A DNA stretch of 64,000 bases. It comes from an uncultured Chloroflexia bacterium (lineage in GTDB: Bacteria > Chloroflexota > Anaerolineae > Anaerolineales > Villigracilaceae). The first letter of the stretch is position 1. Every line of letters starts with the position of its first letter. Below are positions 1-64,000 of this stretch, piece by piece. Under the pieces are notes generated by a model, which searched no databases, was not told the DNA's origin, and saw only the letters and a program-made list of their open reading frames with translations. The position numbers and the translations under genes are program-made. Where the stretch lies: contig CAVZGY010000010.1 of assembly GCA_963774975.1 (NCBI GenBank), positions 12,815 through 76,814 on the forward strand, written 5' to 3'.

Positions 1-599
1 ACCAGCCTGTCGTGATCGTTTATGAGCGCGCTGGGGAACAGTACACAACCACGGTCACCCCCTCCAGCGAGCGAACAGTGGAAGAGGGAGCCACAGGTGT
101 GTTGCTGGGCAACCCCGTCCAGAAGGCAACCTTGTTGACCGCGCTGCCGCTTGGTATTCGCGTGACAGGCATGTACATCTACGAGATCGCGACTCTGCCC
201 GCGCGGCTCATTCAAGGGACCATCCCGGCGGAACAGGCGCGTTTCATCGGTTTGAAAGGGATGTATGATTTCATGTCTCAGGCAGTGACCCGCGACCAGG
301 AGACCCGCCAGACCCTGGCGGCGCAGCCCGCCGGCGCGGCCACCGAGACACCCACCTACTACACGCTGGCGCTGATCGCCACCCTGAATATCTCATTGGG
401 CATCTTCAACCTGCTGCCCCTGCCGGCGCTGGATGGCGGGCGCATTATCTTCCTGCTGCCCGAGCTCATCTTCCGTAAGCGTGTGCCTCACAAGGTTGAG
501 AACACCGTCCACGCGGTGGGCATCATGCTCCTGCTGGCTTTGATGCTGTACATCAACGTGATGGATTTTATCAATCCCGTTGCCATCACTCTGCCTTAA
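1..599 (+). CDS. rseP: RIP/site-2 zinc metalloprotease RseP (M50 family), C-terminal part; 5' end lies outside the window
   Basis: The frame is open to the window start. C-terminal motif NISLGIFNLLPLPALDGGRI plus terminal TM helices are typical of M50 RseP. Confidence 0.85.
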   Translation, partial: QPVVIVYERAGEQYTTTVTPSSERTVEEGATGVLLGNPVQKATLLTALPLGIRVTGMYIYEIATLPARLIQGTIPAEQARFIGLKGMYDFMSQAVTRDQETRQTLAAQPAGAATETPTYYTLALIATLNISLGIFNLLPLPALDGGRIIFLLPELIFRKRVPHKVENTVHAVGIMLLLALMLYINVMDFINPVAITLP

Positions 600-3691: not shown

Positions 3692-3764
3692 GGGCCTGTA
3701 GCGCAGTTGGGAGCGCGCCTCAATCGCACTGAGGAGGTCAGGGGTTCGAATCCCCTCAGGTCCA
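3692..3764 (+). tRNA. tRNA-Ala (anticodon CGC)
   Basis: Hand-folded 73-nt cloverleaf. Acceptor GGGCCTG/CAGGTCC has the G3:U70 Ala identity pair, the anticodon loop is AT-CGC-AC and the T-loop is TTCGAAT. No CCA is encoded. Confidence 0.9.
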
Positions 3765-3846
3765 CTGGGTTCAGTGATTGCGGATTTCAGATTGCCGGGC
3801 AAGTCAGAATCTACAATGCCGCTCACTGAAAATTGAACACCGACAT

Positions 3847-3919
3847 GGGCCCATAGCGCAGTTGGGAGCGCGTCTCAATGGCATTGAGAAGGTCGCGAGT
3901 TCGAATCTCGCTGGGTCCA
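3847..3919 (+). tRNA. tRNA-Ala (anticodon GGC)
   Basis: Hand-folded 73-nt cloverleaf. Acceptor GGGCCCA/TGGGTCC has G3:U70, the anticodon loop is AT-GGC-AT and the T-loop is TTCGAAT. Confidence 0.9.
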
Positions 3920-3973
3920 CCTGGAATAAGCATTGGCGGTTGGTTTTGGCATTTGCCGGGGCCAATCGCTCGG

Positions 3974-7886: not shown

Positions 7887-7942
7887 CACAATCAAAAAGA
7901 ATACGCCGGCCGGCGCATGCTTTTTGATTTAAAGCAGAAGAA

Positions 7943-30590: not shown

Positions 30591-33017
30591 TCATTTGATC
30601 TTTGGGTATTTCCCTGGCGATACTTCGTACATCATTTCATACACGGCATCGAAGATGGTCTCCGCATTCGGCTTGGACCAGTAATCGCCATCTGAGCCAT
30701 AGGCGGGCCGATGAGCGGACCCGGGCAGCGTCCTCGGCGCGGAATCGAGCCAGGCATAGCCGCCCTGATTCTCCAGCACCTCCTGCATCATATAGGCTGT
30801 CGTGCCTCCCGGCACGTCTTCGTCCACGAAAAGGATGCGGCTTGTCTTTTTGAGCGATTCGAGTATCGCACCATGAATGTCAAACGGCAGCAGGGATTGC
30901 ACATCGACCACCTCGGCCTCGATTCCCACCCTGGATAACTTATCAGCGGCATCCAACGCGATACGGCAGCAGGCACCGTAGGTGACGACCGTCGCATCCG
31001 TACCCGTGCGCAGGATCTCGGGAATGCCCGGCAGCACAGTGATGTCACCAAGGTTATCCGGCAGGCGTTCTTTCACGCGGTAACCGTTCAGCACCTCCAC
31101 CACCAGCCCCGGGTCGTCGGACTTGAGCAGGGTATTGTAAAAGCCGGCGGCGCGGGTCATGTCGCGCGGGACAAGCACGTGCATACCCCGCACCAGGTGG
31201 ATGATCCCCGCCATGGGTGAACCGGAATGCCAGATCCCTTCGAGACGATGGCCTCGCGTGCGGACGATGACCGGGGCTTTCTGTCCGCCTGCGGTGCGCC
31301 AGTGAAGCGTGGCGAGATCGTCGCTCATCAGTTGCAGCGCGTACAGCAGGTAATCGAGGTACTGTATCTCACAGATGGGGCGCAGCCCGCGCATCGCCAG
31401 GCCGATGGCCTGCCCGAGGATGGTCGCCTCGCGGATGCCGGTATCCGAGACGCGCAGCGCGCCGTATTTCTCCTGCATCCCCTTGAAGCCCTGGTTAACA
31501 TCGCCCAGCCTGCCCACGTCCTCGCCAAAGGCGACCAGTCGCGGCTCGCGCGCGAGCATGGCATCAAAGGCGAGGTTGATGACCTCGAATCCCATCAGCG
31601 TGGGCGATTTTGCAGAATAGGTCGGCGCAACGGCAGGGACCTTCAATGCGGATGTATTGTCTTCGATATAAAGCAACGCATTGTAATAGGATTCATTCTT
31701 CGCGTCATCGGCTTTTTTCCACTCCACCAGAGCATCTCGCGCTGGACTGGCCTCATCGCGCATCAACCTCAGCGCTTCATGGACATGCATGTGCATATCC
31801 CGCCGCACCGGGGCAGGGATGGCAGCGAGCCGGTCCTTGATACCTCGCAAAGTGTCGGAATGTGTGGAGGCAACCGTAACCTGCTCGAGAAGTTTCAAAA
31901 CCTGCTGACGTTCAACAAGCAAAGGGTTGAGGTAGGCCTCCCAGGCGGATTTGCGAATATCCTCGATCGCCTGGGCATCCTCAACCTCCCAGGATTTGAG
32001 TTCCTTGTCGGAAGCCACCTCGCTGGCGATGATCCACTCGCGCATCTTGCGCAGCCCGTCGTACTCCTCCTCCCACTTGAGCCGCTCAGCGGACTTGTAG
32101 CGCTCATGGCTGCCGCTGGTGCTGTGCCCGAGCGGTTGGGTCACGTCGACCACGTGCACCAACGCAGGGATGTGATACGTGCGGGCGATCTCGGCCGCAG
32201 TTTGATAGGTCTCATAGAGCGCGGGGTAATCCCAGCCGCGGACCGAGTACAGGTCATAGCCGCGGTCGGCCTTCTCCGCAGGGAGCGAGGCGTCACGCTC
32301 GAACCCCTTCAGGATCGCGCCGATATTTTCCTTGACCATCTGGAACTGATTGGGGACGGAGATGCCGTAGCCATCGTCGAAGATGGAGATGACCGCGGGA
32401 GCCTTGAGCACGCCGATGGCGTTGACCGATTCCCAGAACATGCCCTCGGCGGTGGACGCATTTCCGATGGTCGCCCAGGTCACCTCGTCGCCGCTGCGGG
32501 AGAAGCGAGTCTGGTCTTTGAGCGACTCCAACTCGCGGTACAGGCGCGAGGCGTAAGCCAGTCCGACCGCGCGCGGCATCTGGGCAGCAGTCGGGGAGAC
32601 ATCCGCAGCGACGTTGTACATCCCCGTTTGATCGCGCCATGAGCCGTCCGGGTTGATAAAGCGCGAGACGAAATGTCCGTTCATGGATCGGCCGGCGGTC
32701 GCGGGCTCGTAATACAGATCCGTGTGGGCATAGAGCTGGGCAAAGAACGCGCTGAATTCCAGGACGCCGAGCGCGAACATCCAGGTCATGTCCCGGTAGT
32801 AACCGGAGCGCCAGTCGCCCCGTTGAAAGGCGCGCGCGATGGCGAGCTGTGGAATTTCTTTGCCGTCGCCAAAAATACCGAATTTTGCCTTGCCCGAGAG
32901 CACTTCGCGCCGTCCAATGACGGATGCCTGGCGGGAGCGGTAGGCGAGGCGGTAATCCTTGATGATCTCTTCCGGAGGCAGGGGCAGGTTTATGGACTTG
33001 CGCTTGGGCATGGTCAC
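30591..33017 (-). CDS. 2-oxoacid dehydrogenase E1, fused alpha/beta subunits (TPP-dependent)
   Basis: 808 aa. The N-terminal alpha-like TPP-binding half and C-terminal beta/transketolase-like half form one ORF directly upstream of E2. Confidence 0.9.
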   Translation of the reverse strand: MTMPKRKSINLPLPPEEIIKDYRLAYRSRQASVIGRREVLSGKAKFGIFGDGKEIPQLAIARAFQRGDWRSGYYRDMTWMFALGVLEFSAFFAQLYAHTDLYYEPATAGRSMNGHFVSRFINPDGSWRDQTGMYNVAADVSPTAAQMPRAVGLAYASRLYRELESLKDQTRFSRSGDEVTWATIGNASTAEGMFWESVNAIGVLKAPAVISIFDDGYGISVPNQFQMVKENIGAILKGFERDASLPAEKADRGYDLYSVRGWDYPALYETYQTAAEIARTYHIPALVHVVDVTQPLGHSTSGSHERYKSAERLKWEEEYDGLRKMREWIIASEVASDKELKSWEVEDAQAIEDIRKSAWEAYLNPLLVERQQVLKLLEQVTVASTHSDTLRGIKDRLAAIPAPVRRDMHMHVHEALRLMRDEASPARDALVEWKKADDAKNESYYNALLYIEDNTSALKVPAVAPTYSAKSPTLMGFEVINLAFDAMLAREPRLVAFGEDVGRLGDVNQGFKGMQEKYGALRVSDTGIREATILGQAIGLAMRGLRPICEIQYLDYLLYALQLMSDDLATLHWRTAGGQKAPVIVRTRGHRLEGIWHSGSPMAGIIHLVRGMHVLVPRDMTRAAGFYNTLLKSDDPGLVVEVLNGYRVKERLPDNLGDITVLPGIPEILRTGTDATVVTYGACCRIALDAADKLSRVGIEAEVVDVQSLLPFDIHGAILESLKKTSRILFVDEDVPGGTTAYMMQEVLENQGGYAWLDSAPRTLPGSAHRPAYGSDGDYWSKPNAETIFDAVYEMMYEVSPGKYPKIK

Positions 33018-33205
33018 CTTTGAGAGTCAGGTATCGGACTGAGTTACTCCGATTATAGCGCAGGGGGATTAAAAATAAAAATAGAACACGATTCAATAAG
33101 CGTCACACTTGCACTCCCTGGCACCGCCCGCACACCCCGCTTAGTTCGCGGGGCAGGTGGCAGGTGTGCAGCGCAGGTGAAAGTGTTGCGAGGAGGACGG
33201 TTTGT

Positions 33206-33259
33206 ACCTGCGGTGTGAGCAGGTACGCCCGACGTCCCGCACTTGCGGTGTGGGCAGGT
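33206..33259. promoter_or_regulatory. pair of inverted-repeat sites (ACCTGC-N7-GCAGGT type) in a divergent intergenic region
   Basis: ACCTGCGGTGTGAGCAGGT (33206-33224) and ACTTGCGGTGTGGGCAGGT (33241-33259), 35 nt apart. Extra GCAGGTG copies lie at 33153-33179. Confidence 0.4.
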
Positions 33260-33314
33260 GGGCAATCTCATATCATCTGCAGATCGCCACGCCGCTAAAG
33301 AACAGCAACTCGCG

Positions 33315-34487
33315 ATGACACGACAAAATTCAACTATACTTGTCCCCATGTCCATGCCCTTGCCCGTTTCGCAAGTAAACATCCCTCCCGGAGTGATCGA
33401 CCTGGGCGCCGGCAACCCGCCGTTTTCGCTGCTGCCGCTTGACCTGCTGCGCGCCGCCGCCGAATCCTGTTTCGCGCGCGGGGATCCCGACTTTTTACAA
33501 TACGGCGCCGAGCAGGGTGACGGCTACTTCCGCCTGGCGCTGGCTGGGTTTCTCACCGACGGCTATGGATTTCCAGTAAACGCCAATAATCTCTTCGTGA
33601 CGGACGGCATCTCCGGCGGGCTGGACCTGCTCTGCTCGCTCTTCACCCGCGCTGGAGACACGATCTTCGTCGAAGAGCCCTCCTACTTCCTAGCGCTGCG
33701 CATCTTTGCCGATCACGGCTTGAAAGTCGTGTCCATTGATACTGATGAGGATGGATTGGTGGTCGAATCGCTTGAGGAGAAGTTAAAGGAAAACCGCCCA
33801 AAATTCCTGTACATCATCCCCACCTACCAGAATCCCAGCGGGCACACCCTATCCGCAGAACGACGCACGCGTCTTGTGGGACTGGCGCGGGAATATGATT
33901 TCCTGATCCTGGCGGACGAGGTCTACCACTTCCTGAGTTATGACCAACAGCCCCCGAAAGCGTTTGCCGCCTGGACGGAAGACCCCCACATCCTATCCCT
34001 CGGCTCGTTCTCCAAGATACTCGCCCCCGGTCTGCGGCTGGGATGGATTCAGGCAGGCACGGAAAAGATCCAAAAACTGGCAGGCTGCGGCCTGCTGGAC
34101 AGCGGCGGCGGGTTGAACCCGTTCACCTCCGCCATCGTGCGCGAGGTTATCGAATCGGACGGATTGATTCAGAACATCGTTCGGCTGAAGGATATCTACA
34201 GGTCAAAGCTGAATGTGATGGATTCCGCCCTGCGTCGCCACCTCCCCGAATTAATCTGGAAAGTGCCGCAGGGTGGGTATTTCTTATGGGTGCGCCTGCC
34301 CAATGGAATGGATGCGGCAGGACTGCAAAATAATGCGCTGGAAAACAAGGTCAACTTCCGTCCAGGCTTGCGCTTCTCCAGCCAGGACGGGCTGCGCGAC
34401 TTCATTCGATTGAGTTTTGTGTTTTATGAGGCTGATGAGATCGATGAGGGGATTGTGAGATTGAAGAGTTGTTTTGCGCATGTCTAA
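33315..34487 (+). CDS. class I/II PLP-dependent aminotransferase
   Basis: YQNPSGHTL and SFSKILAPGLRLGW (Lys for PLP). The start is ATG 33315 or 33348. Confidence 0.85.
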   Translation: MTRQNSTILVPMSMPLPVSQVNIPPGVIDLGAGNPPFSLLPLDLLRAAAESCFARGDPDFLQYGAEQGDGYFRLALAGFLTDGYGFPVNANNLFVTDGISGGLDLLCSLFTRAGDTIFVEEPSYFLALRIFADHGLKVVSIDTDEDGLVVESLEEKLKENRPKFLYIIPTYQNPSGHTLSAERRTRLVGLAREYDFLILADEVYHFLSYDQQPPKAFAAWTEDPHILSLGSFSKILAPGLRLGWIQAGTEKIQKLAGCGLLDSGGGLNPFTSAIVREVIESDGLIQNIVRLKDIYRSKLNVMDSALRRHLPELIWKVPQGGYFLWVRLPNGMDAAGLQNNALENKVNFRPGLRFSSQDGLRDFIRLSFVFYEADEIDEGIVRLKSCFAHV

Positions 34488-34559
34488 ATAGGTGGCCAAA
34501 TAGCCAAGCTTTCCAGCACGTGCAGATAGAGCTATGGGTGGAATTAGTTTTTACTAGCC

Positions 34560-34976
34560 TCATCTCGAAAAATATATATCAATGGGGATATTTTTTTCAG
34601 CTCCACAATTTTGGCATGTCAAGCCACCGACCATGAATTGACTAAGGTTTTTAGGCTTTCTATGGTAGGACATTTGGCTACCGCAAATCCTACAAATAGT
34701 ATGTTGTTTTTGGTTCAGCCGCTCAAGCAATAAAGTACGTGCTCCTGCATAGTCGATGACACTTTTATTTATTCTCAGCCAGCCAACCATTAAAACAATT
34801 CCAAATATCAGAATATTTCTAACCACATCCGTTCTATCGCTTGTTATAGCCATAACAGCCGCGACCGTTAAGAAAACAACGATAAATATAACTATCGAGA
34901 TTCGTTTAGAAACCCAGATACTCAGAATCATCAGGAACATAGCCAGCAAGATTAAAAAACCAATTACCCATTCCAT
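34560..34976 (-). CDS. small membrane protein with C-terminal zinc ribbon (cassette ORF C)
   Basis: Three hydrophobic helices, then CRIC...CQNC. AT-rich codon usage unlike the flanking DNA. Confidence 0.55.
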   Translation of the reverse strand: MEWVIGFLILLAMFLMILSIWVSKRISIVIFIVVFLTVAAVMAITSDRTDVVRNILIFGIVLMVGWLRINKSVIDYAGARTLLLERLNQKQHTICRICGSQMSYHRKPKNLSQFMVGGLTCQNCGAEKNIPIDIYFSR

Positions 34977-35111
34977 ATGTTTCTAAATCCCAGACTTGAA
35001 ACGACGAATTCAATCATGTTTGTTTTTGAAAATTAGCTATCTGGTTGTGCGGTATTAAATTTACTTGAACAGAAAACTGAGTGATGGATATCAAACCGCC
35101 TTCCTGTTATA

Positions 35112-35187
35112 TCACTTCAACCGTTCCGTCACCCTTGCACCACATCCAGCATCTTGACCCTATCGCTGGCTGTCGCGTCGGTTGGAG
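35112..35187 (-). repeat. relic R1: decayed copy of a CCG-protein gene 3' end
   Basis: The minus strand reads ..TDATASDRVKMLDVVQ.. then, after a 1-nt slip, VTERLK-stop. It shares the core TTCAACCGTTCCG with R2 and R3. Termini CTTCAACCG and CGGTTGGAG are inverted. Confidence 0.7.
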
Positions 35188-35213
35188 CACCTTAGTGTGC
35201 AACCAATGATTAT

Positions 35214-35600
35214 TTATATCATCCGTGGTATTTGCGATGAATGCTGATGAATGATGGGCGATGCTTTTGAAATATCAATAACAAAAGTAAATCGCGCTTC
35301 ATAGGTGATCAATTCGTCTTCCACACTGAATTTCCACTGATATATCCCGCTGACGACGAAAAGGATTGCATTCAGCTGTTGAGTCTTAATGGTTTTAGGA
35401 TGTAAAGTTAATTTCAGATTCTTTCTGCTGAATAATTTTTTGAAATACTCCCTGATTTTCTCCGGTGTATTTTGTATACGATCAGAAAATGTAGGAATAA
35501 TGATCGCATCGTGATCATATAGAGCCAATAAATTTTCCAGCTCGCGTTGATGCACCAGTTTTATCCATCTCTCAACGATTTTCAGTGGGTTGCGAAGCAT
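35214..35600 (-). CDS. NTF2/SnoaL-like (DUF4440-like) small protein (cassette ORF B)
   Basis: About 128 aa from ATG 35600 (MLRNPLKIVERWIKLV...). The alpha+beta cone pattern is typical of the family. AT-rich. Confidence 0.6.
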   Translation of the reverse strand: MLRNPLKIVERWIKLVHQRELENLLALYDHDAIIIPTFSDRIQNTPEKIREYFKKLFSRKNLKLTLHPKTIKTQQLNAILFVVSGIYQWKFSVEDELITYEARFTFVIDISKASPIIHQHSSQIPRMI

Positions 35601-35695
35601 ATGGATTACATCTCCAATTCTTGATCCCAATGGTTTACTAACGTGGTACGGAATCCAGCGAGAGGATCTCCGTAACGGTCGAATATGAAGAGTAC

Positions 35696-35776
35696 TTATT
35701 TCAACCGTTCCGCCACCAACTCTACCACATCCAGCACCTTGACCATACCGCCGTCCAGTGGAATCGATGTTGAATT
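35696..35776 (-). repeat. relic R2: intact in-frame copy of a CCG-protein gene 3' end
   Basis: The minus strand translates IPLDGGMVKVLDVVELVAERLK-stop, compared with ADGGVVNVMDVAEIVAKRLKA-stop at the end of gene 40275..42293. Inverted termini are TTCAACCGTTCC and GGAATCGATGTTGAA. Confidence 0.75.
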
Positions 35777-35788
35777 CCTTCTTTATGC

Positions 35789-36238
35789 TTATTTATATTT
35801 TAATGATGCTTCGCATTCACCTGTCATTCTATTTCCAATGCATAAATTTAAGCGCAGTACATCATTCCTCTGTTGATACTGCTGATAGAGGCAATCTGCA
35901 AGTATCATGGGCTGATTTGAACCGCCCGCAAAGAAAGCCGCTTCCCACTTGCAATGATCGTTAGCCACCGTCTCCCAATCAGCCTCGATTTGTAGAAGAT
36001 CCGCGTAATGCGATGCATCCATATGTCCTTGCAACTCATTAATGAGCAAATTTAATTTTTCTTGTTCAGTCTGGCTCAATCGGCTTACACATTGATTCAA
36101 TTCCAATTGAGTCAATGCGGATGAACAATTGTTTACTGGCGTAGTTTCCGGGGTCGGAGCTGATTTGGTGGGTTGTGAAGAACACGCGGAAAGTGCAATT
36201 ATTGAAAGAGTTCTTCCCACTAGTAATATAGGTTTCAT
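35789..36238 (-). CDS. lipoprotein, DUF1311/LprI-like (cassette ORF A)
   Basis: Lipobox IIALSAC. The pattern ELNQC...W...C...GGS...C...R matches the DUF1311 family. Confidence 0.65.
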   Translation of the reverse strand: MKPILLVGRTLSIIALSACSSQPTKSAPTPETTPVNNCSSALTQLELNQCVSRLSQTEQEKLNLLINELQGHMDASHYADLLQIEADWETVANDHCKWEAAFFAGGSNQPMILADCLYQQYQQRNDVLRLNLCIGNRMTGECEASLKYK

Positions 36239-36341
36239 GATCGCGAATCGAAGAAGTGAGCTCCTAACTGGTGTTTAGTCGGCCCGTCTGTCACTGTGTG
36301 GCACTTCGGCACAACTTATAGACGGCCAAAAAATAATCCGC

Positions 36342-36393
36342 TTTTTCAACCGTTCCGCACCAGTTCTGCTCCAACCCTCACAGACTTCTCGGC
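36342..36393 (-). repeat. relic R3: truncated copy of the same 3'-end element, abutting the live stop codon
   Basis: Directly after the TGA of gene 36394..38277 the minus strand reads AEKSVRVGAELV(A)ERLK-like sequence and carries the core CGGAACGGTTGAA. Confidence 0.6.
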
Positions 36394-38277
36394 TCACAAC
36401 TCCAACTGCGCCGCGAGCACCTCTGCGACATCCATGACTTTCACCTTTTCGTTGAGCGCCTTGGATTTGGTCGCGTCCTCGAACATGATCATGCAATAGG
36501 GACAGGCGGTCGCGACCACGTCCGCTTTCGCGTCGAGGGCATCCTGCAGGCGGTGATGATTGATGCGCGTGGTGATGTCGGTTTCGAGCCACATGCCGCC
36601 GCCCCCGCCGCCGCAACACAGACTATCCTCCATCTTTCGCGCCATCTCAACGCGCTGAACCCCAGCCTTGTCCAGAAGCGCGCGAGGTTCCTTGTAGATT
36701 TCATTGTAGCGCCCAAGATAACAGGAGTCGTGATACGAAACCCTGCCCTGAACGCCGTTCGGGTTCGATCCCGGAACGGGGAGGTTCAATTCAGCCAGCA
36801 GTTCCGTGTAATGCATCACTTTGTAATCGCCGCCCATCTGGGGATATTCATTCTTGAGCGTGTTGAAGCAATGCGGGCAGGCTGTGACAACGCGGTTGAA
36901 CTTGATCTTGCTGAAGGTTTCGATATTCTGTTTGGCAAATTCCTGGAACATGTACTCATGCCCCATGCGGCGGGCCGTTTCACCGCAGCACATTTCATCA
37001 AAACCCAGCACGCCAAAATCCACGCCTGCTTTTTGCAAGAGTTTAACGAAGGCTCTCGCCACTTTTTTGTTGCGCTGATCGAAAGCCGCCGCGCACCCGA
37101 CGAAGTAGAGCACATCCACCTGGTCGCCTGCGGCAAGTTCGCGCACATTCAGTCCCTCCGCCCATTCCATTTTCTGGTCGGGGGGAATCCCCCAGGGATT
37201 CGCCTGCCGCTCGAAGTTGCGGAGCAGGTCCGAGATGGCCTTCGGCAATTTGCCGCTGGTCAGCGCCTGGAAACGGCGCAGGTCGATCACTTCGTCAACA
37301 GGGTTGATGAAGACCGGGCACTTGACGATACACGCGCCGCAGGTGGTGCACTGCCAGGAATAATTCTCCGGCACCACGTTGCCAAGCAGGTCGGCCTCGG
37401 GTTTGGCTTCCCCCGTCAGCAGGGCATTGTTCATCCCTTTGCGCATCATTTGAACGAGATCGCGGGGCGAGTAATCCATGCCGCTGATATTGGCGGGGCA
37501 GGCCTCCTGGCAGCGCCCGCACTTCAGGCAGGCATCGAACGAGAGCAATTGCTGAGGTGTGAATTCTGCGATCTTGCCGACACCGAGGAGTTCCGTCGTT
37601 TCGATATCCTCGATCTTTTGCATGGCGCCCATGGGCTCTTGAGGGCGCACGAGAATGTTGAGCGGACCGGTGAGCATGTGGCGCAGTTTTGTGAACGGCA
37701 CAGACGCCACAAGCAGGAGTGCAACGATCACATGCACGACAACAAGGGTGTTATGCCATTCGAAGGCCTGTTGGGTCGTCATGCCGGCGGCAAGAAAAAC
37801 ACCCGCCAACCAATTGCCGATGGGGGACCAGGCCGCCCAGGGCGGATCGACCACCATCAAGCGCGTCGCTTCGTTGGTGAACCCGATCAGCGCGAGAAGA
37901 AGCAGCATGGCCAGGGCATACCAGTCATCCCAGCTGGTTTGTAATGCTTTGGGGCGCAGCACCAGGCGGCGGAATCCCGCCATCAACACGCCGAGGATGA
38001 TAAAGAGGCCGGCGACATCCATGGCCGTTTCGTAGCCGAGATACCAGCTCATGCGGGGGAAGGTCTCCAACGCAAAGGGCAGGAACAACTTCATCTGCAT
38101 CAGGTTGATGGCCGTTCCGATCACCTGAACGACCACCCCCCAGAAGATCAGGAAGTGCATCAGGCCGGGATACCATTTCTTGAGGATACGTTTCTGCCCG
38201 ATCACCTGGACAAAAAAATCCCGGAGCGCGTGTTTATGCAGGATCAGGCGTGGAGCTTGCTGGGTTGTTGTGGTCAT
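36394..38277 (-). CDS. membrane Fe-S oxidoreductase: NarI-like heme-b TM domain + 2x[4Fe-4S] + two CCG domains (HdrD/DsrMK-like fusion)
   Basis: The N-terminus has 5-6 TM helices with conserved His. Motifs are CLKCGRCQEACP, CTTCGACIVKCP, MCCGETARRMG and LCCGGGGG. The start overlaps the Rieske stop (ATGA). Confidence 0.85.
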   Translation of the reverse strand: MTTTTQQAPRLILHKHALRDFFVQVIGQKRILKKWYPGLMHFLIFWGVVVQVIGTAINLMQMKLFLPFALETFPRMSWYLGYETAMDVAGLFIILGVLMAGFRRLVLRPKALQTSWDDWYALAMLLLLALIGFTNEATRLMVVDPPWAAWSPIGNWLAGVFLAAGMTTQQAFEWHNTLVVVHVIVALLLVASVPFTKLRHMLTGPLNILVRPQEPMGAMQKIEDIETTELLGVGKIAEFTPQQLLSFDACLKCGRCQEACPANISGMDYSPRDLVQMMRKGMNNALLTGEAKPEADLLGNVVPENYSWQCTTCGACIVKCPVFINPVDEVIDLRRFQALTSGKLPKAISDLLRNFERQANPWGIPPDQKMEWAEGLNVRELAAGDQVDVLYFVGCAAAFDQRNKKVARAFVKLLQKAGVDFGVLGFDEMCCGETARRMGHEYMFQEFAKQNIETFSKIKFNRVVTACPHCFNTLKNEYPQMGGDYKVMHYTELLAELNLPVPGSNPNGVQGRVSYHDSCYLGRYNEIYKEPRALLDKAGVQRVEMARKMEDSLCCGGGGGGMWLETDITTRINHHRLQDALDAKADVVATACPYCMIMFEDATKSKALNEKVKVMDVAEVLAAQLEL

Positions 38278-40274: not shown

Positions 40275-42293
40275 TTAAGCCTTAAGACGTTTGGCAACTA
40301 TTTCCGCGACATCCATCACATTAACCACCCCCCCATCAGCCTTGGACGCATCCGTGAGCATGATCATACAGAAGGGGCAGCCCACCGCCAGCGTTTCAGC
40401 GCCAGCCGAAGGTCCTGCTGCACTTAGCAGGGTCGCCTTGGCTTCGGCAAAGCGTGCGCGGTTGACGTTGGTATCGCCGTGTTCCTCCTCCTTCCACATC
40501 TGCGCGCCGCCTGCGCCGCAGCAGAAGGATTTATCCTTATTGCGAGGCATCTCGATCACCTCCAGCCGGGCAGCCTTCAGGTCATCCCGAGGCGCGTCGA
40601 AGACCTGGTTGTGCCTGCCGAGGTAACACGGATCGTGGAACGTCACCCGTAACTGTTCACTACTCTCCACTAACTGAATCTTCCCCGCCCCGACCAGTTC
40701 ATTGATCAACTGCGTGTGATGGATGACCGTATAGTTCCCGCCGAATTGGGGATACTCATTCTTCAACGTATGCAGGCAGTGCGGGCAGGTGGTGACGATC
40801 CGCCTGGGCGCCACCTCGTTCAGGATGTCCACATTTTGCCTAGCCAGCCCGAAGAAAATGTCCTCACGCCCGGCGCGCCGCGCTGAATCACCTGTGCAGG
40901 ATTCATTCTTTCCAAGAACTGCAAAATTCACGCCGGCGGCATTCAGGATTTGTGCAAATGCCTGGGCTGTCTTCTGGGCGCGCGAGTCCGTGGCCGGCGC
41001 GCAGCCCACCCACCACAATAGTTCCGGCTCGGGGTTCTGCTCAACCGTCGGGACGTTCAACCCTTCCGCCCACTTCATACGGTCTGACTGGCTGATGTTC
41101 CATGGATTCGCGTTGCGTTCCATACCCTTGAACGCCGTCTCCAATTGCTTCGGGAAACTACTTTCCATCATGGAGAGGTTGCGACGGATGTCGAGGATGT
41201 CACGCATCGGTTCGTTACCCACCGGGCAGATGTCCACGCACGCGCCGCACGCAGTGCATGCCCAGACAGACTCCTCATTAATCGCATACTCCAACAGGGG
41301 GGTATCCATCGCGCCGCCGTGGTTCAGGCGATAGCGCTTGTTGATTTCCAGCGCGGCGGGACTCAACAGTTTGCCAGTGTTGTATGCCGGGCAGACTTCC
41401 TGGCAGCGGAAGCACATGATGCAGGCATAGCTGTCCATCACCTGCTCCCAGCCAAGGTCGGTCAGCCGCGCCGCGCCAAATTGTTCAATGGACTGATCGT
41501 CGAGGTTGATATATCCCATCTGACCGATGGATTTACGTTCAGGCTTGAGCGCAAAGTTAAGCGGCGCAAAGAACATGTGGACGTGTTTCGAGTACGGGAA
41601 GTAAGGCAGGAAGGCAAGGATCGACCCAAAGTAAACCCAGAAAAAGGCATGCTCGCCCAGCGCGATCACGTTCGCATCCATGCCGGACCAGATCCCTGCA
41701 AGCGCGGAGGCAACGGGCTCCCACACATTCGGCCCGCCCACGCCTGCGAGATAAAAAGAGTTGGTGAACAGGCGCGCAGAGTTACAGATCACAATGAAGA
41801 GTACAACGATCAACGAATCCCGTTTGATTCCGGAACGGGCGCGTGGATCCAACAGGCTCGTCTCACGCGTGGATAGGTTTGCCGGGCGGAAGACAAAGCG
41901 TCGAACCGCCATGAACAGGGTACCGATCAACACTGTTACAGTCGCAACGTCCGCGAACGACAGGTAGAGGCGGCCGAACAAGCCCAGATGATCGAGCGCC
42001 CTGAACCCCGTGAGCGCGTAAATCGAATCGGCAAGGTCGATCACCAACAAGCAGAGAAAACCCCAGCCGATGAGGGCGTGGAACAGGCTGGGGATGAAGC
42101 GATAACGGAAGACTGGCTGGAAGCTGACGACCTTGAAGAAAACATCCACAATACGACTACGCGCAATGCGCCAATCGGGCTTACCCTGCCCGCTGGCGAT
42201 GATGGCGATAATCCGCCGGACGCCGCGCCAGGTGAAATACAGTGATAGGCCGACAGCAACGATAAACAGGATTTTCTCGACAGGGGTCAGCAT
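40275..42293 (-). CDS. membrane Fe-S oxidoreductase, paralogue of 36394..38277 (NarI-like TM + 2x[4Fe-4S] + CCG domains)
   Basis: CIMCFRCQEVCP, CTACGACVDICP and FCCGAGGA. The first CCG box is degenerate (SCTGDSARRAG). ATG 42293 follows GAGGTG; a GTG at 42299 is an alternative start. Confidence 0.85.
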   Translation of the reverse strand: MLTPVEKILFIVAVGLSLYFTWRGVRRIIAIIASGQGKPDWRIARSRIVDVFFKVVSFQPVFRYRFIPSLFHALIGWGFLCLLVIDLADSIYALTGFRALDHLGLFGRLYLSFADVATVTVLIGTLFMAVRRFVFRPANLSTRETSLLDPRARSGIKRDSLIVVLFIVICNSARLFTNSFYLAGVGGPNVWEPVASALAGIWSGMDANVIALGEHAFFWVYFGSILAFLPYFPYSKHVHMFFAPLNFALKPERKSIGQMGYINLDDQSIEQFGAARLTDLGWEQVMDSYACIMCFRCQEVCPAYNTGKLLSPAALEINKRYRLNHGGAMDTPLLEYAINEESVWACTACGACVDICPVGNEPMRDILDIRRNLSMMESSFPKQLETAFKGMERNANPWNISQSDRMKWAEGLNVPTVEQNPEPELLWWVGCAPATDSRAQKTAQAFAQILNAAGVNFAVLGKNESCTGDSARRAGREDIFFGLARQNVDILNEVAPRRIVTTCPHCLHTLKNEYPQFGGNYTVIHHTQLINELVGAGKIQLVESSEQLRVTFHDPCYLGRHNQVFDAPRDDLKAARLEVIEMPRNKDKSFCCGAGGAQMWKEEEHGDTNVNRARFAEAKATLLSAAGPSAGAETLAVGCPFCMIMLTDASKADGGVVNVMDVAEIVAKRLKA

Positions 42294-42487
42294 GCGCACC
42301 TCGAAAGAAAAAACGCGGACGGTTTCCGATTGATGGTGAGGTTCCCTTCCGCGTTGCCGTATATTATTTTACTTGAACTTGGTTGAATTGTTGTCCTTTC
42401 CCGCCAACCCTCACACGACCCTGACCCTACCCCAGCCCCAGGTAGGACGCTGTGGGGAGACCATTGCCAAGCGGGACGATAGACTCT

Positions 42488-53649: not shown

Positions 53650-53700
53650 AAAGAATCAGGGTGGTGAGCAGTATTGCTGCTCACCACCCTGATTCTTTTT
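53650..53700. terminator. strong intrinsic terminator after dnaE
   Basis: 22-bp perfect stem AAAGAATCAGGGTGGTGAGCAG / CTGCTCACCACCCTGATTCTTT followed by T residues. Confidence 0.85.
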
Positions 53701-55942: not shown

Positions 55943-56188
55943 GCGTCAGTTCTGCAAGCAAATACGCCTAGGGAGACGAATCGCCATCCCTGCGCGTATT
56001 TGCTTGTAGAAAAATCTTGAACGTGGTCTCTCTGGGCGTTTGTAAAGTGGGGTACGATTAATCACGAACGAAGTGGGAGTTTACAAATCGTCTAACCAGG
56101 GAGAAAGCATGACGATCCGTAACGCCCCTCCCCGGCACCGGGAGGTGTTTCCAATCATGTCTGCAAGCCTGTCCCTCAGGGTGTTTCG

Positions 56189-61501: not shown

Positions 61502-63007
61502 ATGTGCAGCATGAGATGGTGGCAAAATCAGGGACTTAACTTCAAGGTCGCTGTGGGTATTGCGCTCACGATGGTGCTGGTCCTGGGAGCCGTGTTTTTT
61601 GTCCTTTCCCGCCATTTCAGGACGGTGATGTGGGACAGCGAGATTCAGAAGATCCAGACCATCAACTCCGTTGCCGAGACAATGTTGGTCGACGCCATGA
61701 TGACCGGGAACAAGTCGGTCATCCAGGATGCGCTCGAAAGACTGGGCAGGAATGTGGCCAACCAGCAGTTATACAGTATCGCGGTTTACGATGATGATTA
61801 TGCCCTCACGTCATTCGCCTCCGGTTTTCCCGGGGGGCAGGCCATCCCAAAAGAAAGCATGCCTTCCAGTGAGGAGGATCCTTCCTGCTGGGGTTGTCAT
61901 CAGCTTTCCGCAGCGGAACGTCCCGCCTTTCTGGCAGTGACTGTGGGCGGGCGCGACATCATCCGCAACTCGGTGCCTCTATATAACGAGGAACGCTGCC
62001 AGTCCTGTCACGGAACCGGCACGCACGTCCTGGGCGATATCATGGTGGACTACAGTCAGGATCAGTTCAAGCAGTCCTACAACACAGTCCTGCTGGGTCT
62101 TCTGGGCGGTATGGTGGCAGCCATCGGCCTGGTGGCATTGGTGATGTTTCAGGTCATGCGTCGCATCGTACTCAACCCCGTGGAAGAAATCGCCGAGGTG
62201 GCGGATTCGGTTTCGCGCGGCACCCTGGACCGCCAGATTCAGGTGCGCAGCAACGATGAGCTCGGCGTTCTGGGGCGTACGTTCAACAGCATGACCTCTC
62301 AGTTGCGCGACTTGATCGGTTCATTGGAACAGCGCGTGGCAGACCGGACAAAGGCGCTGAGAACATCCGCGGAGGTCAGCCGGCGGCTCTCGACCATTCT
62401 TGACCAGAAGGAATTGGTGAAGGAAGTGGTGGAGCAGGTACAGTCGGCTTTCAACTATTACCACGCGCATATTTACCTGGTGGACGAAACCAGCGGTGAC
62501 CTGATCATGGCTGGTGGAACAGGCGAAGCCGGCGCCACCCTGCTGGCGCGCGGTCACAAACTCCCCAAAGGCAAAGGCCTGGTGGGACGCGCAGCCGACA
62601 TCAATGCCATGGTGCTCGTGCCTGATACTTCCAAAAATCCGGACTGGCTGCCCAACCCCTTGCTGCCTGAGACCAAATCTGAGGTGGCCGTGCCCATCTC
62701 CATGGGAGAGCAGGTGCTGGGGGTCCTGGACGTGCAGCACAATATCGCTGATGGCTTGCAGCAGGAGGATGCAGACATGCTTGCCTCCATCGCCAGCCAG
62801 GTAGCCATCGCCCTGCAGAATACTTCTTCCTATGCGGAAGCCCAGCAAAGGGCCGAACGGGAGACTTTGATCGCATCCATCGGCCAGCAGATTCAGAGCG
62901 CCACCACCGTGGAAAGCGCTCTGCAAGTGGCAGTACGCGAGATCGGGCGTGCCTTGGGCCAACCAGCAAGTGTTAGACTGAAAACTACGGATGATCCTCA
63001 GGAATGA
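61502..63007 (+). CDS. membrane signalling protein: TM, periplasmic domain with two CxxCH motifs, TM, HAMP, GAF; no recognisable output domain
   Basis: CWGCH and CQSCH lie between two TM helices. The HAMP segment reads [24 protein letters not shown], followed by a GAF domain. The protein ends about 40 aa after the GAF. Confidence 0.8.
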
Positions 63008-63026: not shown

Positions 63027-64000
63027 ATGAAGAAGCTTCTTTTTCTTCCGGATTTTCATGACGAAGACAAGCAACGTACCGGGCGATATCTCAATATCAT
63101 CATTTTGAGTGGAATTGGATTACTGTCCGTACTTCTTGTCTCTCGTCTCTTGCAAAGTTTCATCTTATCGCCCACAAATGTTCTGTTGTTGATTCTGGTG
63201 GGCATCCTGATCACGTTGCGTGTGCTTCTCCAGTTTGGTTATGTTCGTACAGCCAGCCTGATTCTCGTCACAATCACATGGGTTGCGATGACATATCAGG
63301 CATATTCCAACGATGGAGTTCGCGATGTCTCAATTGTGGCTTATGCTGTAGTCATCCTCATGACCAGTCTGCTGTTAGGCTGGCAATACAGTCTTCCATT
63401 CTTTGGATTGAGTGTTGCCGCGATGCTGATTATGGCCAATCAAGAGGTCAGGGGGCTTCGGGCGGTTTCATATGACACATCAATGAATACAGCTGTTGAC
63501 CTGATAGCCATTTATTCCTTGATAGTTGTCATGACCTATTTGCTCATCAGTGGATTGCAGAAATCAATAAAAAGTGCCAAAGCGTCATCTCAGGAACTCA
63601 GGATTGCAAACGATGAATTGCAGGCTTTTCAAGCACAACTCGAGCAGCGCGTGAATGAACGCACCAAGGCGCTGACAGCATCCACTGAAGTCAGCCGCCG
63701 CCTCTCGACCATCCTTGACCCGAAGCAACTCGTAAAGGAAGTAGTGGATCAGGTGCAGGACGCCTTTGATTTCTACCATGTACACATCTATTTACAGGAT
63801 GAAGCCAGCGGAGATCTGATCATGGCTGGCGGCACCGGTGAAGCTGGCGTCGCGATGCTTGCCCGCGGTCACAAAATATCCAAAGGCAGAGGCCTGGTCG
63901 GACATGCTGCAGAGGCAAATGCCCCTGTGCTCGTTCCGGACACTTCAAAAGATATAAACTGGCTTCCCAACCCCTTGCTTCCTGATACGAAATCGGAAGT
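63027..64000 (+). CDS. polytopic membrane GAF-domain signalling protein, 3' end outside the window
   Basis: Not in the ORF track because no stop is reached. ATG at 63027 follows AGGAGAGGG. About 5 TM helices, a coiled coil, then a GAF domain about 76% identical in residues to that of the preceding gene. Confidence 0.75.
   Translation, partial: MKKLLFLPDFHDEDKQRTGRYLNIIILSGIGLLSVLLVSRLLQSFILSPTNVLLLILVGILITLRVLLQFGYVRTASLILVTITWVAMTYQAYSNDGVRDVSIVAYAVVILMTSLLLGWQYSLPFFGLSVAAMLIMANQEVRGLRAVSYDTSMNTAVDLIAIYSLIVVMTYLLISGLQKSIKSAKASSQELRIANDELQAFQAQLEQRVNERTKALTASTEVSRRLSTILDPKQLVKEVVDQVQDAFDFYHVHIYLQDEASGDLIMAGGTGEAGVAMLARGHKISKGRGLVGHAAEANAPVLVPDTSKDINWLPNPLLPDTKSE

Follow-up and report, generated by a model that had tools for sequence, protein, structure and literature searches.

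A hypervariable array of single-gene cassettes on the stop codon of an Fe-S oxidoreductase gene in one uncultured Anaerolineales species group

We analyzed a 64,000-nucleotide (nt) stretch of contig CAVZGY010000010.1, from an uncultured Chloroflexia bacterium (assembly GCA_963774975.1, positions 12,815 to 76,814); the whole stretch is called the window below. Between the terminal CCG-domain iron-sulfur (Fe-S) oxidoreductase gene of an operon, here CCG1, and a convergent aminotransferase gene lies one allele of a cassette array that is hypervariable and sits on the CCG1 stop codon in one uncultured Anaerolineales species group. Its cassettes are single open reading frames (ORFs), and between them stand relics, that is, 5'-truncated 3' ends of a gene of the CCG2 type, here called T. 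With some reserve, we lean toward an origin of the array in successive reciprocal recombination events, each moving a single-gene cassette at a site that comes from a gene 3' end. The parts of the region, in window positions, are as follows.

33243 to 34487, plus strand: convergent class I/II aminotransferase gene, the conserved right anchor.
34488 to 34559, minus strand: distal spacer up to the aminotransferase stop, without a clear relic.
34560 to 34976, minus strand: cassette ORF3, a membrane protein with a C-terminal zinc-ribbon-like CxxC...CxxC motif.
34977 to 35111, minus strand: ORF3 leader, with weak similarity to the shared flank that follows the relics.
35112 to 35187, minus strand: R1, a hybrid T relic of ~27 codons with a 1-nt deletion; core 35116 to 35128.
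35214 to 35600, minus strand: cassette ORF2, SnoaL/NTF2-like, 128 amino acids (aa) (Pfam SnoaL_3, E = 5e-6).
35601 to 35695, minus strand: ORF2 leader, type A, which starts with the shared flank motif CTTCATATTCGACCG.
35696 to 35756, minus strand: R2, a T relic of 19 codons plus stop (DGGMVKVLDVVELVAERLK-stop); core 13-mer 35700 to 35712.
35789 to 36238, minus strand: cassette ORF1, an LprI/DUF1311-like lipoprotein (Pfam, E = 1e-9).
36239 to 36341, minus strand: ORF1 leader, homologous by alignment to the T downstream flank.
36342 to 36393, minus strand: R3, the truncated remnant of the first T-gene fragment, abutting the CCG1 stop; 36377 to 36393 is the start of the long relic of loci L002 and L149, and 36345 to 36376 is the last ~11 codons, including the core at 36345 to 36357.
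36394 to 38277, minus strand: CCG1, last gene of the Rieske/cytochrome b/CCG operon (Pfam CCG, Fer4, Nitrate_red_gam), the conserved left anchor; the array begins directly after its TGA.
40275 to 42299, minus strand: resident CCG2, a live paralogue of the relic-source gene type and not the direct source.

Alleles of the array in relatives were found by a scan of species-representative genomes with CCG1, which gave Anaerolineales metagenome-assembled genomes including those of loci L001 and L002, and further metagenome contigs were found via the relic DNA pattern, ORF2 homologues, and the relic peptide. There were at least 6 array configurations and at least 11 cassettes behind CCG1 ends 94 to 99.6% identical to the window's, and every unit (at least 11) is a single ORF oriented like CCG1. 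Cassette presence and absence in relatives, a comparison that a preliminary description of this DNA had proposed, showed that content differs behind near-identical CCG1 ends. The window reads CCG1, ORF1, ORF2, ORF3, aminotransferase. In L001 the order is CCG1, relic, ORF2 (with a premature TAA), relic, terminator, aminotransferase, and L131 and L132 have the same order with ORF2 intact. L002 has CCG1, a long relic, ORF2, relic, ORF3, terminator, aminotransferase, and L130 has CCG1, relic, ORF2, relic, ORF-Y, a long relic, and an HNH_5 endonuclease gene. L149 and L150 carry CCG1, a long relic, a hemerythrin gene, a short relic, ORF-X, relic, ORF2, an inverted 38-nt piece, and a further ORF that we take to be an acetyltransferase gene; L106 and L120 show ORF-X, relic, ORF2. 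L129 and a 7.5-kb contig (that of P0010) have a CCG-type gene, RibD_C, ORF2, a truncated relic, ORFs of 196 and 29 aa, a TPR gene, and the aminotransferase gene. ORF2 is thus in every array recovered, ORF3 is in the window and L002 and absent from L001, L131, and L132, and ORF1 was recovered solely in the window's array.

The CCG1 protein is 98% identical to the window's in L001 and 95% in L002, and its native C terminus is common to the island-free orthologues L003 to L009. These distant orthologues (77 to 86% aa identity) have other small genes 3' of CCG1, without relics, and the space 3' of CCG1 is a hotspot beyond the species group. Such low-GC accessory genes were seen at L004:11931-12744, L003:7100-8528, and L007:11935-13804; the pair of small ORFs in L004 was read by eye as HicA/HicB-like. 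Among the arrays themselves, the ORF2 of L001 (12105-12490) has an in-frame TAA where the window has CAA and is probably a pseudogene, and the relics of that array are also the most decayed. ORF-Z of L130 (1935-2222), cut by the contig end, is the HNH_5 endonuclease (Pfam, E = 5e-7); a nuclease of this kind within an array could bear on the origin of DNA breaks.

The composition of the segment was checked by GC content and by GC content at third codon positions (GC3), and the AT-rich contrast with the flanks that had been described was confirmed. In 300-nt windows, GC is 0.35 to 0.47 at 34450-36400 versus 0.52 to 0.66 in both flanks, and the segment at 34488-36393 is ~40% GC with flanks at ~57%. 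ORF1, ORF2, and ORF3 have GC values of 0.416, 0.375, and 0.376 and GC3 values of 0.37, 0.40, and 0.38, respectively; CCG1 has GC 0.576 and GC3 0.74, and the aminotransferase gene has GC 0.565 and GC3 0.68. The GC3 of the host genes CCG1, CCG2, and aminotransferase is accordingly 0.68 to 0.74, against 0.37 to 0.40 for the cassette ORFs. R1 to R3 are host-like in composition (GC 0.54 to 0.58).

That the segment holds three unrelated minus-strand ORFs also stood: DUF1311 and SnoaL were found by Pfam, and for ORF3 the only Pfam matches were sub-threshold ones to zinc ribbons. The called frame of ORF2 is 35214-35630 on the minus strand, and the conserved start is the ATG at 35600. ORF2 is under purifying selection, with ratios of nonsynonymous to synonymous substitution rates (dN/dS) of 0.07 to 0.33, and the value for ORF3 is 0.21. 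Between the window and L002, dS is 0.79 for ORF2, three times the 0.26 of adjacent CCG1, and therefore the cassette alleles did not simply co-diverge with the chromosome. The closest ORF2 homologues outside arrays (P0013 and P0014, 61 to 63% identity) are in an AT-rich non-Chloroflexi genome, where they lie beside tRNA genes and thrS with no relics. The cassettes are independently acquired foreign single genes, usually AT-rich. PADLOC gave no defence match for them.

The repeats that separate the cassettes share the 13-mer TTCAACCGTTCCG, and its three positions were reported correctly: it occurs exactly three times in the 64 kb (35116, 35700, and 36345; spacing 584 and 645 bp), all in the array, and its number of near-matches was reached in 0 of 100 shuffles. 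R1 and R2 are 83% identical over 52 nt, and R1 to R3 align with one another and with the 3' ends of both CCG genes; the 1-nt slip in R1 and the truncation of R3 against the live stop were both borne out. We redefined the repeat from an alignment of 14 inter-cassette spacers. Its first part is the 5'-truncated 3' end of T, with 10 to 63 or more pseudo-codons; the extremes are 10 codons after hemerythrin and ~63 codons beside CCG1 in L002 and L149 (...RFAKARTTSAGTLAVGCPFCLTMLNDASKADGGTVKVLDVAELVAERLK-stop). Its second part, beyond the relic stop, is a common sequence that extends for as much as ~110 nt (CTTCATATTCGACCGTCTGTAAGCAGTTACGAAGTGCC...). Repeats of about 50 to 80 bp, as first described, do precede each ORF, but the repeat is longer by this flank. 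ORF1, ORF2 (with two leader types), and ORF-Y are all preceded by this flank, and ORF-X and ORF3 by more weakly similar sequence; in the window it lies at about 36292-36341 and 35680-35695. In other arrays, flank homologous to the ORF1 leader (e.g., 36292-36327, GGCCGTCTATAAGTTGTGCCGAAGTGCCACACAGTG) stands before ORF-X, ORF-Y, and ORF2 with its type B leader.

The relic is confined to this locus within the ~108 kb of the species group examined, and in the window, L001, and L002 the relic profile matched only the array and the live CCG ends. One metagenome scan with the relic pattern gave homologous arrays only, the other matches (46 of 48) being chance matches in unrelated genes, and viral contigs, scanned three times for patterns of the relic and flank, yielded no match beyond chance. 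In the public gene calls, P0041, P0066, P0076, and P0077 are relic ORFs of 29 to 66 aa annotated "Fe-S oxidoreductase"; they are pseudo-3' ends, not genes.

The relics had been described as derived from the C terminus of the CCG protein family. This part held, since the long relic of L002 aligns with the CCG2 end of the same locus (72% aa identity over 47 aa, E = 1.6e-18; 83% nt identity over 104 nt), but the source type is CCG2, and neither the adjacent CCG1 nor the resident CCG2 is the source itself. The resident CCG2 has a 9-aa insertion, LLSAAGPSA, which is missing from the relics, and because of this the relics are not copies of it; together with the different codons, the missing insertion rules out the relics as duplicates of the resident CCG2 end. 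No CCG1-type relics were found elsewhere in 80 related loci. An LLSAAGPSA-like insertion of 8 to 9 aa lies just before ..LAVGCPFC in the CCG2 of the window (40330-40420), L001, L002, L006, L008, L009, and L037 and is absent from the relics, L003, L004, L005, L007, and L145; it is a useful marker of relic origin.

Differences among the relics at codon positions 1, 2, and 3 are in the ratio 173:124:251. Five largely independent relic pairs have 31 synonymous and 30 nonsynonymous differences, while neutral decay predicts 25% synonymous; the pooled ratio of nonsynonymous to synonymous differences per site (pN/pS) is 0.32 (P = 1e-5 versus the neutral expectation). ERLK has two synonymous endings, GAA CGG TTG AAA and GAG AGA TTR AAG. 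Because the relic differences are mainly synonymous, each copy was once live coding sequence, and duplication in place followed by decay cannot explain the relics; the copies diverged within working genes. With the missing insertion, this codon pattern marks the relics as once-live ends of CCG2-type genes that belonged to other lineages or alleles. It is unlikely that they are real small proteins, since several copies are frameshifted or have lost the stop and some are only 10 to 19 codons long.

Live T-type genes with such ends are present in L144, L145, L147, and L148; the end is ...DVAELVAERMM-stop in L145 and ...DVAELVAERIK-stop in L144. In L145, a MazE-PIN pair comes after the live T gene, then a radical-SAM gene and two dehydrogenase genes, E1 and E2, which are those beyond the window's array (68% and 64% aa identity). 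This right-hand neighborhood gives positional support for a T gene once at the array locus.

Across 14 junctions, the 5' extent of the relic is fixed by the upstream cassette and the flank type is fixed by the downstream cassette. The relic after ORF2 always begins CTCCAGCCGACG (27 codons), whether it stands before ORF3, ORF-Y, the terminator, or the 196-aa ORF (five contexts). Relics are 19 codons long after ORF1 and ORF-X, 10 after hemerythrin, and at least 45 after ORF-Y; there is none after RibD_C. The R1 body, private 1-nt deletion included, is common to the window and L001 through GGTGACGGA, beyond which the two diverge completely: the window continues with ACGGTTGAAGTGA and the ORF3 leader, and L001 continues with GAGATTAAAGTAG and the terminator hairpin. 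In R1 the 5' part is accordingly the one common to L001, and the last 13 nt are associated with ORF3. L130 versus L131 shows the same switch pattern, and in both pairs the switch comes after GGCGGA, a regularity drawn from three informative comparisons only, with several junctions irregular.

Copies of the repeat before ORF2 have GTAGAGTTG or GCGGAACTG upstream of the 13-mer and TAAGTA or TGGATA downstream, in all four combinations; therefore exchange occurred within about 18 nt around the 13-mer. These patterns show the sites to be hybrids: the part up to the end of ...GGCGGA would descend with the left cassette, while the right one would bring the last 13 nt (ACGGTTGAA and the stop) together with the flank. 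The statement that each ORF is preceded by a relic was right as to position, but the relic body goes with the upstream cassette. The 13-mer TTCAACCGTTCCG is a cassette-borne allele. The terminal allele of L001 and L131 (GAG AGA TTA AAG TAG, followed by the hairpin) is similar to live T ends and looks native. The fragment adjacent to CCG1 has three versions, longest in L002 and L149, shorter in L001, L130, and L131, and internally deleted in the window; the first bases after TGA are common to all three, and they are interconvertible by deletions. The CCG1-adjacent fragment and the native-like terminal end together suggest that a T gene once stood between CCG1 and the aminotransferase gene.

We propose the following history. 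The array would have started as the 3' end of the T gene formerly between CCG1 and the aminotransferase gene, with the 5' part since lost; the survivors of that gene would be the fragment abutting the CCG1 stop and the terminal end with its terminator in L001 and L131. Cassettes would have been inserted and lost singly, each event being a reciprocal recombination at a fixed point beside the T stop codon. The likely intermediate would be a circle made up of the 13 nt, the flank, the ORF, its tail, and the 5' part of a relic, and the process would formally parallel cassette exchange in integrons. Hybrid sites, one-ORF units, common orientation, and combinatorial content are as expected from single-cassette reciprocal recombination at a fixed point. 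The preliminary description had suggested serial site-specific capture of foreign cassettes at a gene 3' end, and much of this stands (the stack of foreign single genes, the boundaries formed by 3'-end relics), with site specificity a possibility; direct derivation of the boundaries from CCG1 or the resident CCG2 does not.

Several observations weigh against such a history. Motifs of tyrosine and serine recombinases, sought with a crude regular expression in six-frame translations, were absent from the window, as had been noted before, and from the 22-kb loci L001 and L002, and there was no recombinase among the cassettes checked by Pfam. The site is without dyad symmetry or conserved structure. 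No array was seen on a live T gene: in all arrays the CCG1 stop is followed by only a 5'-truncated T fragment of at most 63 codons, and live T was found only elsewhere, in L144, L145, L147, and L148. Irregular junctions are also contrary (RibD_C, the 196-aa ORF, L149, and ORF3). The RibD_C stop (CACAAATAAGT, L129:240-262) occupies the usual place of the relic stop (TTGAAATAAGT) with no relic, and it runs directly into the ORF2 leader, the junction falling at a shared 7-nt AAATAAG. The relic before the 196-aa ORF is cut after 11 codons, and ORF3 has no recognizable relic tail. At L149:2127-2170, a 38-nt piece of ORF2 tail plus relic start (GTTGCCCAACAAGGCACTCCAGCCGACGCGTCAA) is reverse-complemented right after ORF2; the inverted piece contains the palindrome GACGCGTC, and a different cassette (the one taken as acetyltransferase) comes next. 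Finally, the sample is small and biased: it has about 10 array-bearing contigs, short for the most part, and ORF2 or the relic itself led to most of them.

A second example of the same architecture occurs on another gene end. At L148:4300-4880 (minus strand), the order is a live CCG2-type gene, a 3' fragment (...CAGCGMCEQSCPQHLPLSIIFTHVKQQL...), truncated at its 5' end, of a gene that we call U, an MqsA-antitoxin-like ORF, and a second U 3' fragment with a terminator. U is a conserved gene after the terminal CCG gene in many Anaerolineales. The two U relics differ by 5 synonymous changes and 1 nonsynonymous change and contain a 41-nt identical block. Since this second example is on another gene, it fits a homology-guided process of 3'-end displacement, and U relics around an MqsA cassette argue for a homology-driven rather than a sequence-specific process, again to the detriment of recombination at a dedicated site. 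The same locus has, at 296-457 (plus strand), a T-type relic (..GTLAVGCPFCMMMLTGAAKADGEQVKVLDVAEIVAGRLK-stop) with a terminator hairpin, inverted and ~4.4 kb away from where the live T gene ends. This relic forms the border of a block of low GC content, made up of unrelated ORFs and a small ORF that looks toxin-like by eye, and it may be the product of an inversion between T-end copies.

If cassettes do move singly, the exchange could depend on a dedicated recombinase acting in trans or on the host's general or illegitimate recombination on relic homology, and we consider these two about equally probable. In favor of a dedicated recombinase are the recurring switch point, the conserved 13-mer specific to cassettes, and the ORF3 and hemerythrin units, which have too little relic for RecA-dependent exchange. 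A bolder proposal, unlikely enough to be offered tentatively, is that Anaerolineales have an undescribed integron-like capture system with a recombinase in trans, the site being the end of a housekeeping Fe-S oxidoreductase gene, whose pseudo-3' end on each cassette would serve in place of attC, and with sister versions on other gene ends (U in L148).

Recombination of single cassettes has one serious competitor, which we judge possible though on the unlikely side: there would be no mobility at the level of the cassette, and the array would have grown by repeated homology-facilitated or illegitimate imports from relatives at a hotspot, anchored in the homologous gene end. Each import would leave a displaced or duplicated 3' end, and strains would differ by homologous exchange of whole array segments. 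The long and variable segments of homology (30 to 190 nt plus flank) suit such imports, as do irregular junctions with microhomology such as AAATAAG between RibD_C and the leader, the U relics with MqsA in L148, the negative crude search for recombinases in the window, L001, and L002, and the variable region downstream of CCG1 in other lineages (L003, L004, and L007). However, a strict pattern of one co-oriented ORF in at least 11 units is unexpected from random imports, and the ORF3 and hemerythrin units share at most 13 to 30 nt of relic with the insertion point, too little for RecA-dependent exchange. The recurrence of the switch at one place also counts against imports, as does the conservation of the 13-mer allele on cassettes and not on the terminal native-like end.

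It is improbable that integrase-bearing islands were stacked at the T 3' end and each then deleted down to one gene and an att relic. Direct repeats of the target 3' end between tandem islands are the classical signature of such stacking (Dehalococcoides ssrA, PMC3146451; Prochlorococcus tycheposons), and remnants and integrase-less members are known in these precedents. Yet at least 11 units would each have kept exactly one intact ORF under purifying selection, and no integrase fragments were found by Pfam or by the crude motif search. The unit of ORF2, its tail, and the 27-codon relic has the same boundaries in each of five contexts, and the spacers are almost wholly relic and flank, with no island debris.

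The suggestion in the preliminary description of a cluster of attC sites lacking an integrase (CALIN), whose attC sites resemble or derive from coding sequence, did not survive and is very improbable. The units are single, co-oriented, strain-variable ORFs 0.58 to 0.65 kb apart, Chloroflexi have integrons, and CALIN elements are frequent (PMC4889954). The inverted termini that had been pointed out are literally present in R2, which begins ATTCAAC and ends GTTGAAA, but they are at chance level: the R''-like heptamer is not conserved, being absent from the equivalent copies in L106 and L120, R1 has TCCAAC, and GTTGAAA is simply the codons of (R)LK. No hairpin was found, since folding z scores were 0.7 to -1.9 for the repeats and whole spacers of the window on both strands, and the consensus fold of 9 copies had -2.5 kcal/mol with a covariation term of +0.15 (no covariation), i.e., no conserved structure. 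A crude regular expression for tyrosine-recombinase box II gave no IntI-like motif in the window, L001, and L002. Local tandem duplication of relic plus ORF, or a genome-wide repeat resembling repetitive extragenic palindromes (REPs) or miniature inverted-repeat transposable elements, the REP-like case having been named earlier as what would overturn the account, would suit the head-to-tail periodicity of 584 and 645 bp but is refuted by the unrelated ORFs, by synonymous differences among relic copies of different alleles, and by confinement to the locus, the 13-mer and relic profile having no match outside the array and live CCG ends in the window, L001, and L002.

Other features of the window can be given briefly. 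The distal spacer has a terminator hairpin in L001, L002, and L131. In the window, an 8-nt sequence after ORF3 (34512-34519, GTGCTGGA) matches the relic (..AAGGTGCTGGATGTG..); it could be all that is left of a fourth relic, or the match could be due to chance (about 6% expected). Rfam gave no match in 33000-38000, and promoters and terminators were not enriched in the array (0 terminators; 6 promoter-like sites versus 5.0 expected). Away from the array, two tRNA-Ala genes at 3692-3765 and 3847-3921 (anticodons CGC and GGC), 155 nt apart, appear as an 81%-identical direct repeat in the self-comparison. A 359-nt direct repeat (75% identity; 62327-62685 versus 63642-64000) lies inside or adjoining a 501-aa ORF, and perfect or near-perfect palindromes of 40 to 63 nt are at 7890-7929, 53650-53698, and 55950-56011.

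If cassettes move singly at a site made from a gene 3' end, integron-style gene shuffling would have arisen by a second, independent route, and in a phylum about whose mobile elements almost nothing is known. The question of how cassette recombination sites originate would be touched as well, because here the coding origin is still legible. If no dedicated enzyme is involved, the locus shows displaced gene ends seeding a self-perpetuating hotspot of single-gene exchange. In either case, such arrays would be expected to escape IntegronFinder as well as those island finders that depend on an integrase.

The array invites comparison with several known systems. Integrons carry cassette arrays, and CALIN are clusters of attC sites without an integrase (Cury et al. 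2016, PMC4889954). Like these, the array consists of single, mostly promoter-less, co-oriented ORFs in units of ~0.5 to 0.7 kb, with combinatorial content among close relatives. Functions are also of the kind found in integron cassettes (antitoxins, an acetyltransferase-like ORF, SnoaL-like proteins, RibD_C, small membrane proteins), and as in integrons the sites are hybrids with the body from the upstream cassette and a few 3' nucleotides from the next. As in CALIN, no integrase adjoins the array, the flanks being CCG1 and the aminotransferase gene. Unlike integron sites, the sites here lack an imperfect palindrome, conserved R''/L''/L'/R' boxes are absent, and neither strand forms a hairpin; each is recognizable as the pseudo-coding 3' end of a housekeeping-type gene, marked by past purifying selection, with its flank. 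Unlike in a complete integron, no IntI or attI was found here (a CALIN needs no IntI).

In the orphan toxin-tip/immunity modules of rhs and cdiA genes, an incoming 3' end with its partner gene displaces the previous one. The array is similar in that displaced 3' gene fragments are each followed by one small gene. It differs in that the tips of rhs/cdiA are variable and toxic and are paired with cognate immunity genes, whereas here it is the 3' end that is conserved, with small genes that bear no relation to it and no toxin domain involved.

Partial tRNAs are scattered through the tycheposon islands of Prochlorococcus (bioRxiv 10.1101/2020.12.28.424599). There, too, repeated integration at one site pushes older elements inward, partial copies of the target are left, and small cargo sets differ among coexisting strains. 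Tycheposons have tyrosine recombinases, replication modules, and tRNA targets; the array has neither recombinase nor replication module, its target is protein-coding, and each unit has one gene.

The accretion of cis-mobilizable elements and integrative and conjugative elements at the fda 3' end in streptococci, and of composite staphylococcal cassette chromosome islands at the rlmH 3' end, is the remaining comparison. A precedent within the same phylum, Chloroflexota, is Dehalococcoides, whose ssrA islands, integrase-less members included, are bounded by 20-bp repeats of the ssrA end (PMC3146451, which also mentions cis-mobilizable elements accreting with conjugative elements). As in these systems, the units of the array are bounded by direct repeats of the target 3' end and newer units stack beside older ones; as there, units that lack a recombinase of their own would need one in trans. 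Accretion islands are 5 to 60 kb long with repeats of 15 to 20 bp, whereas the units here are single genes of 0.4 to 0.5 kb and the repeats are 30 to 190 nt of coding relic plus ~100 nt of flank. The array also differs in that no unit seen here has a recombinase and there is no intact target gene at its head. The array behaves like an integron, but in anatomy it is closest to tandem accretion at gene 3' ends; we place it there, as a form that differs in these four respects.

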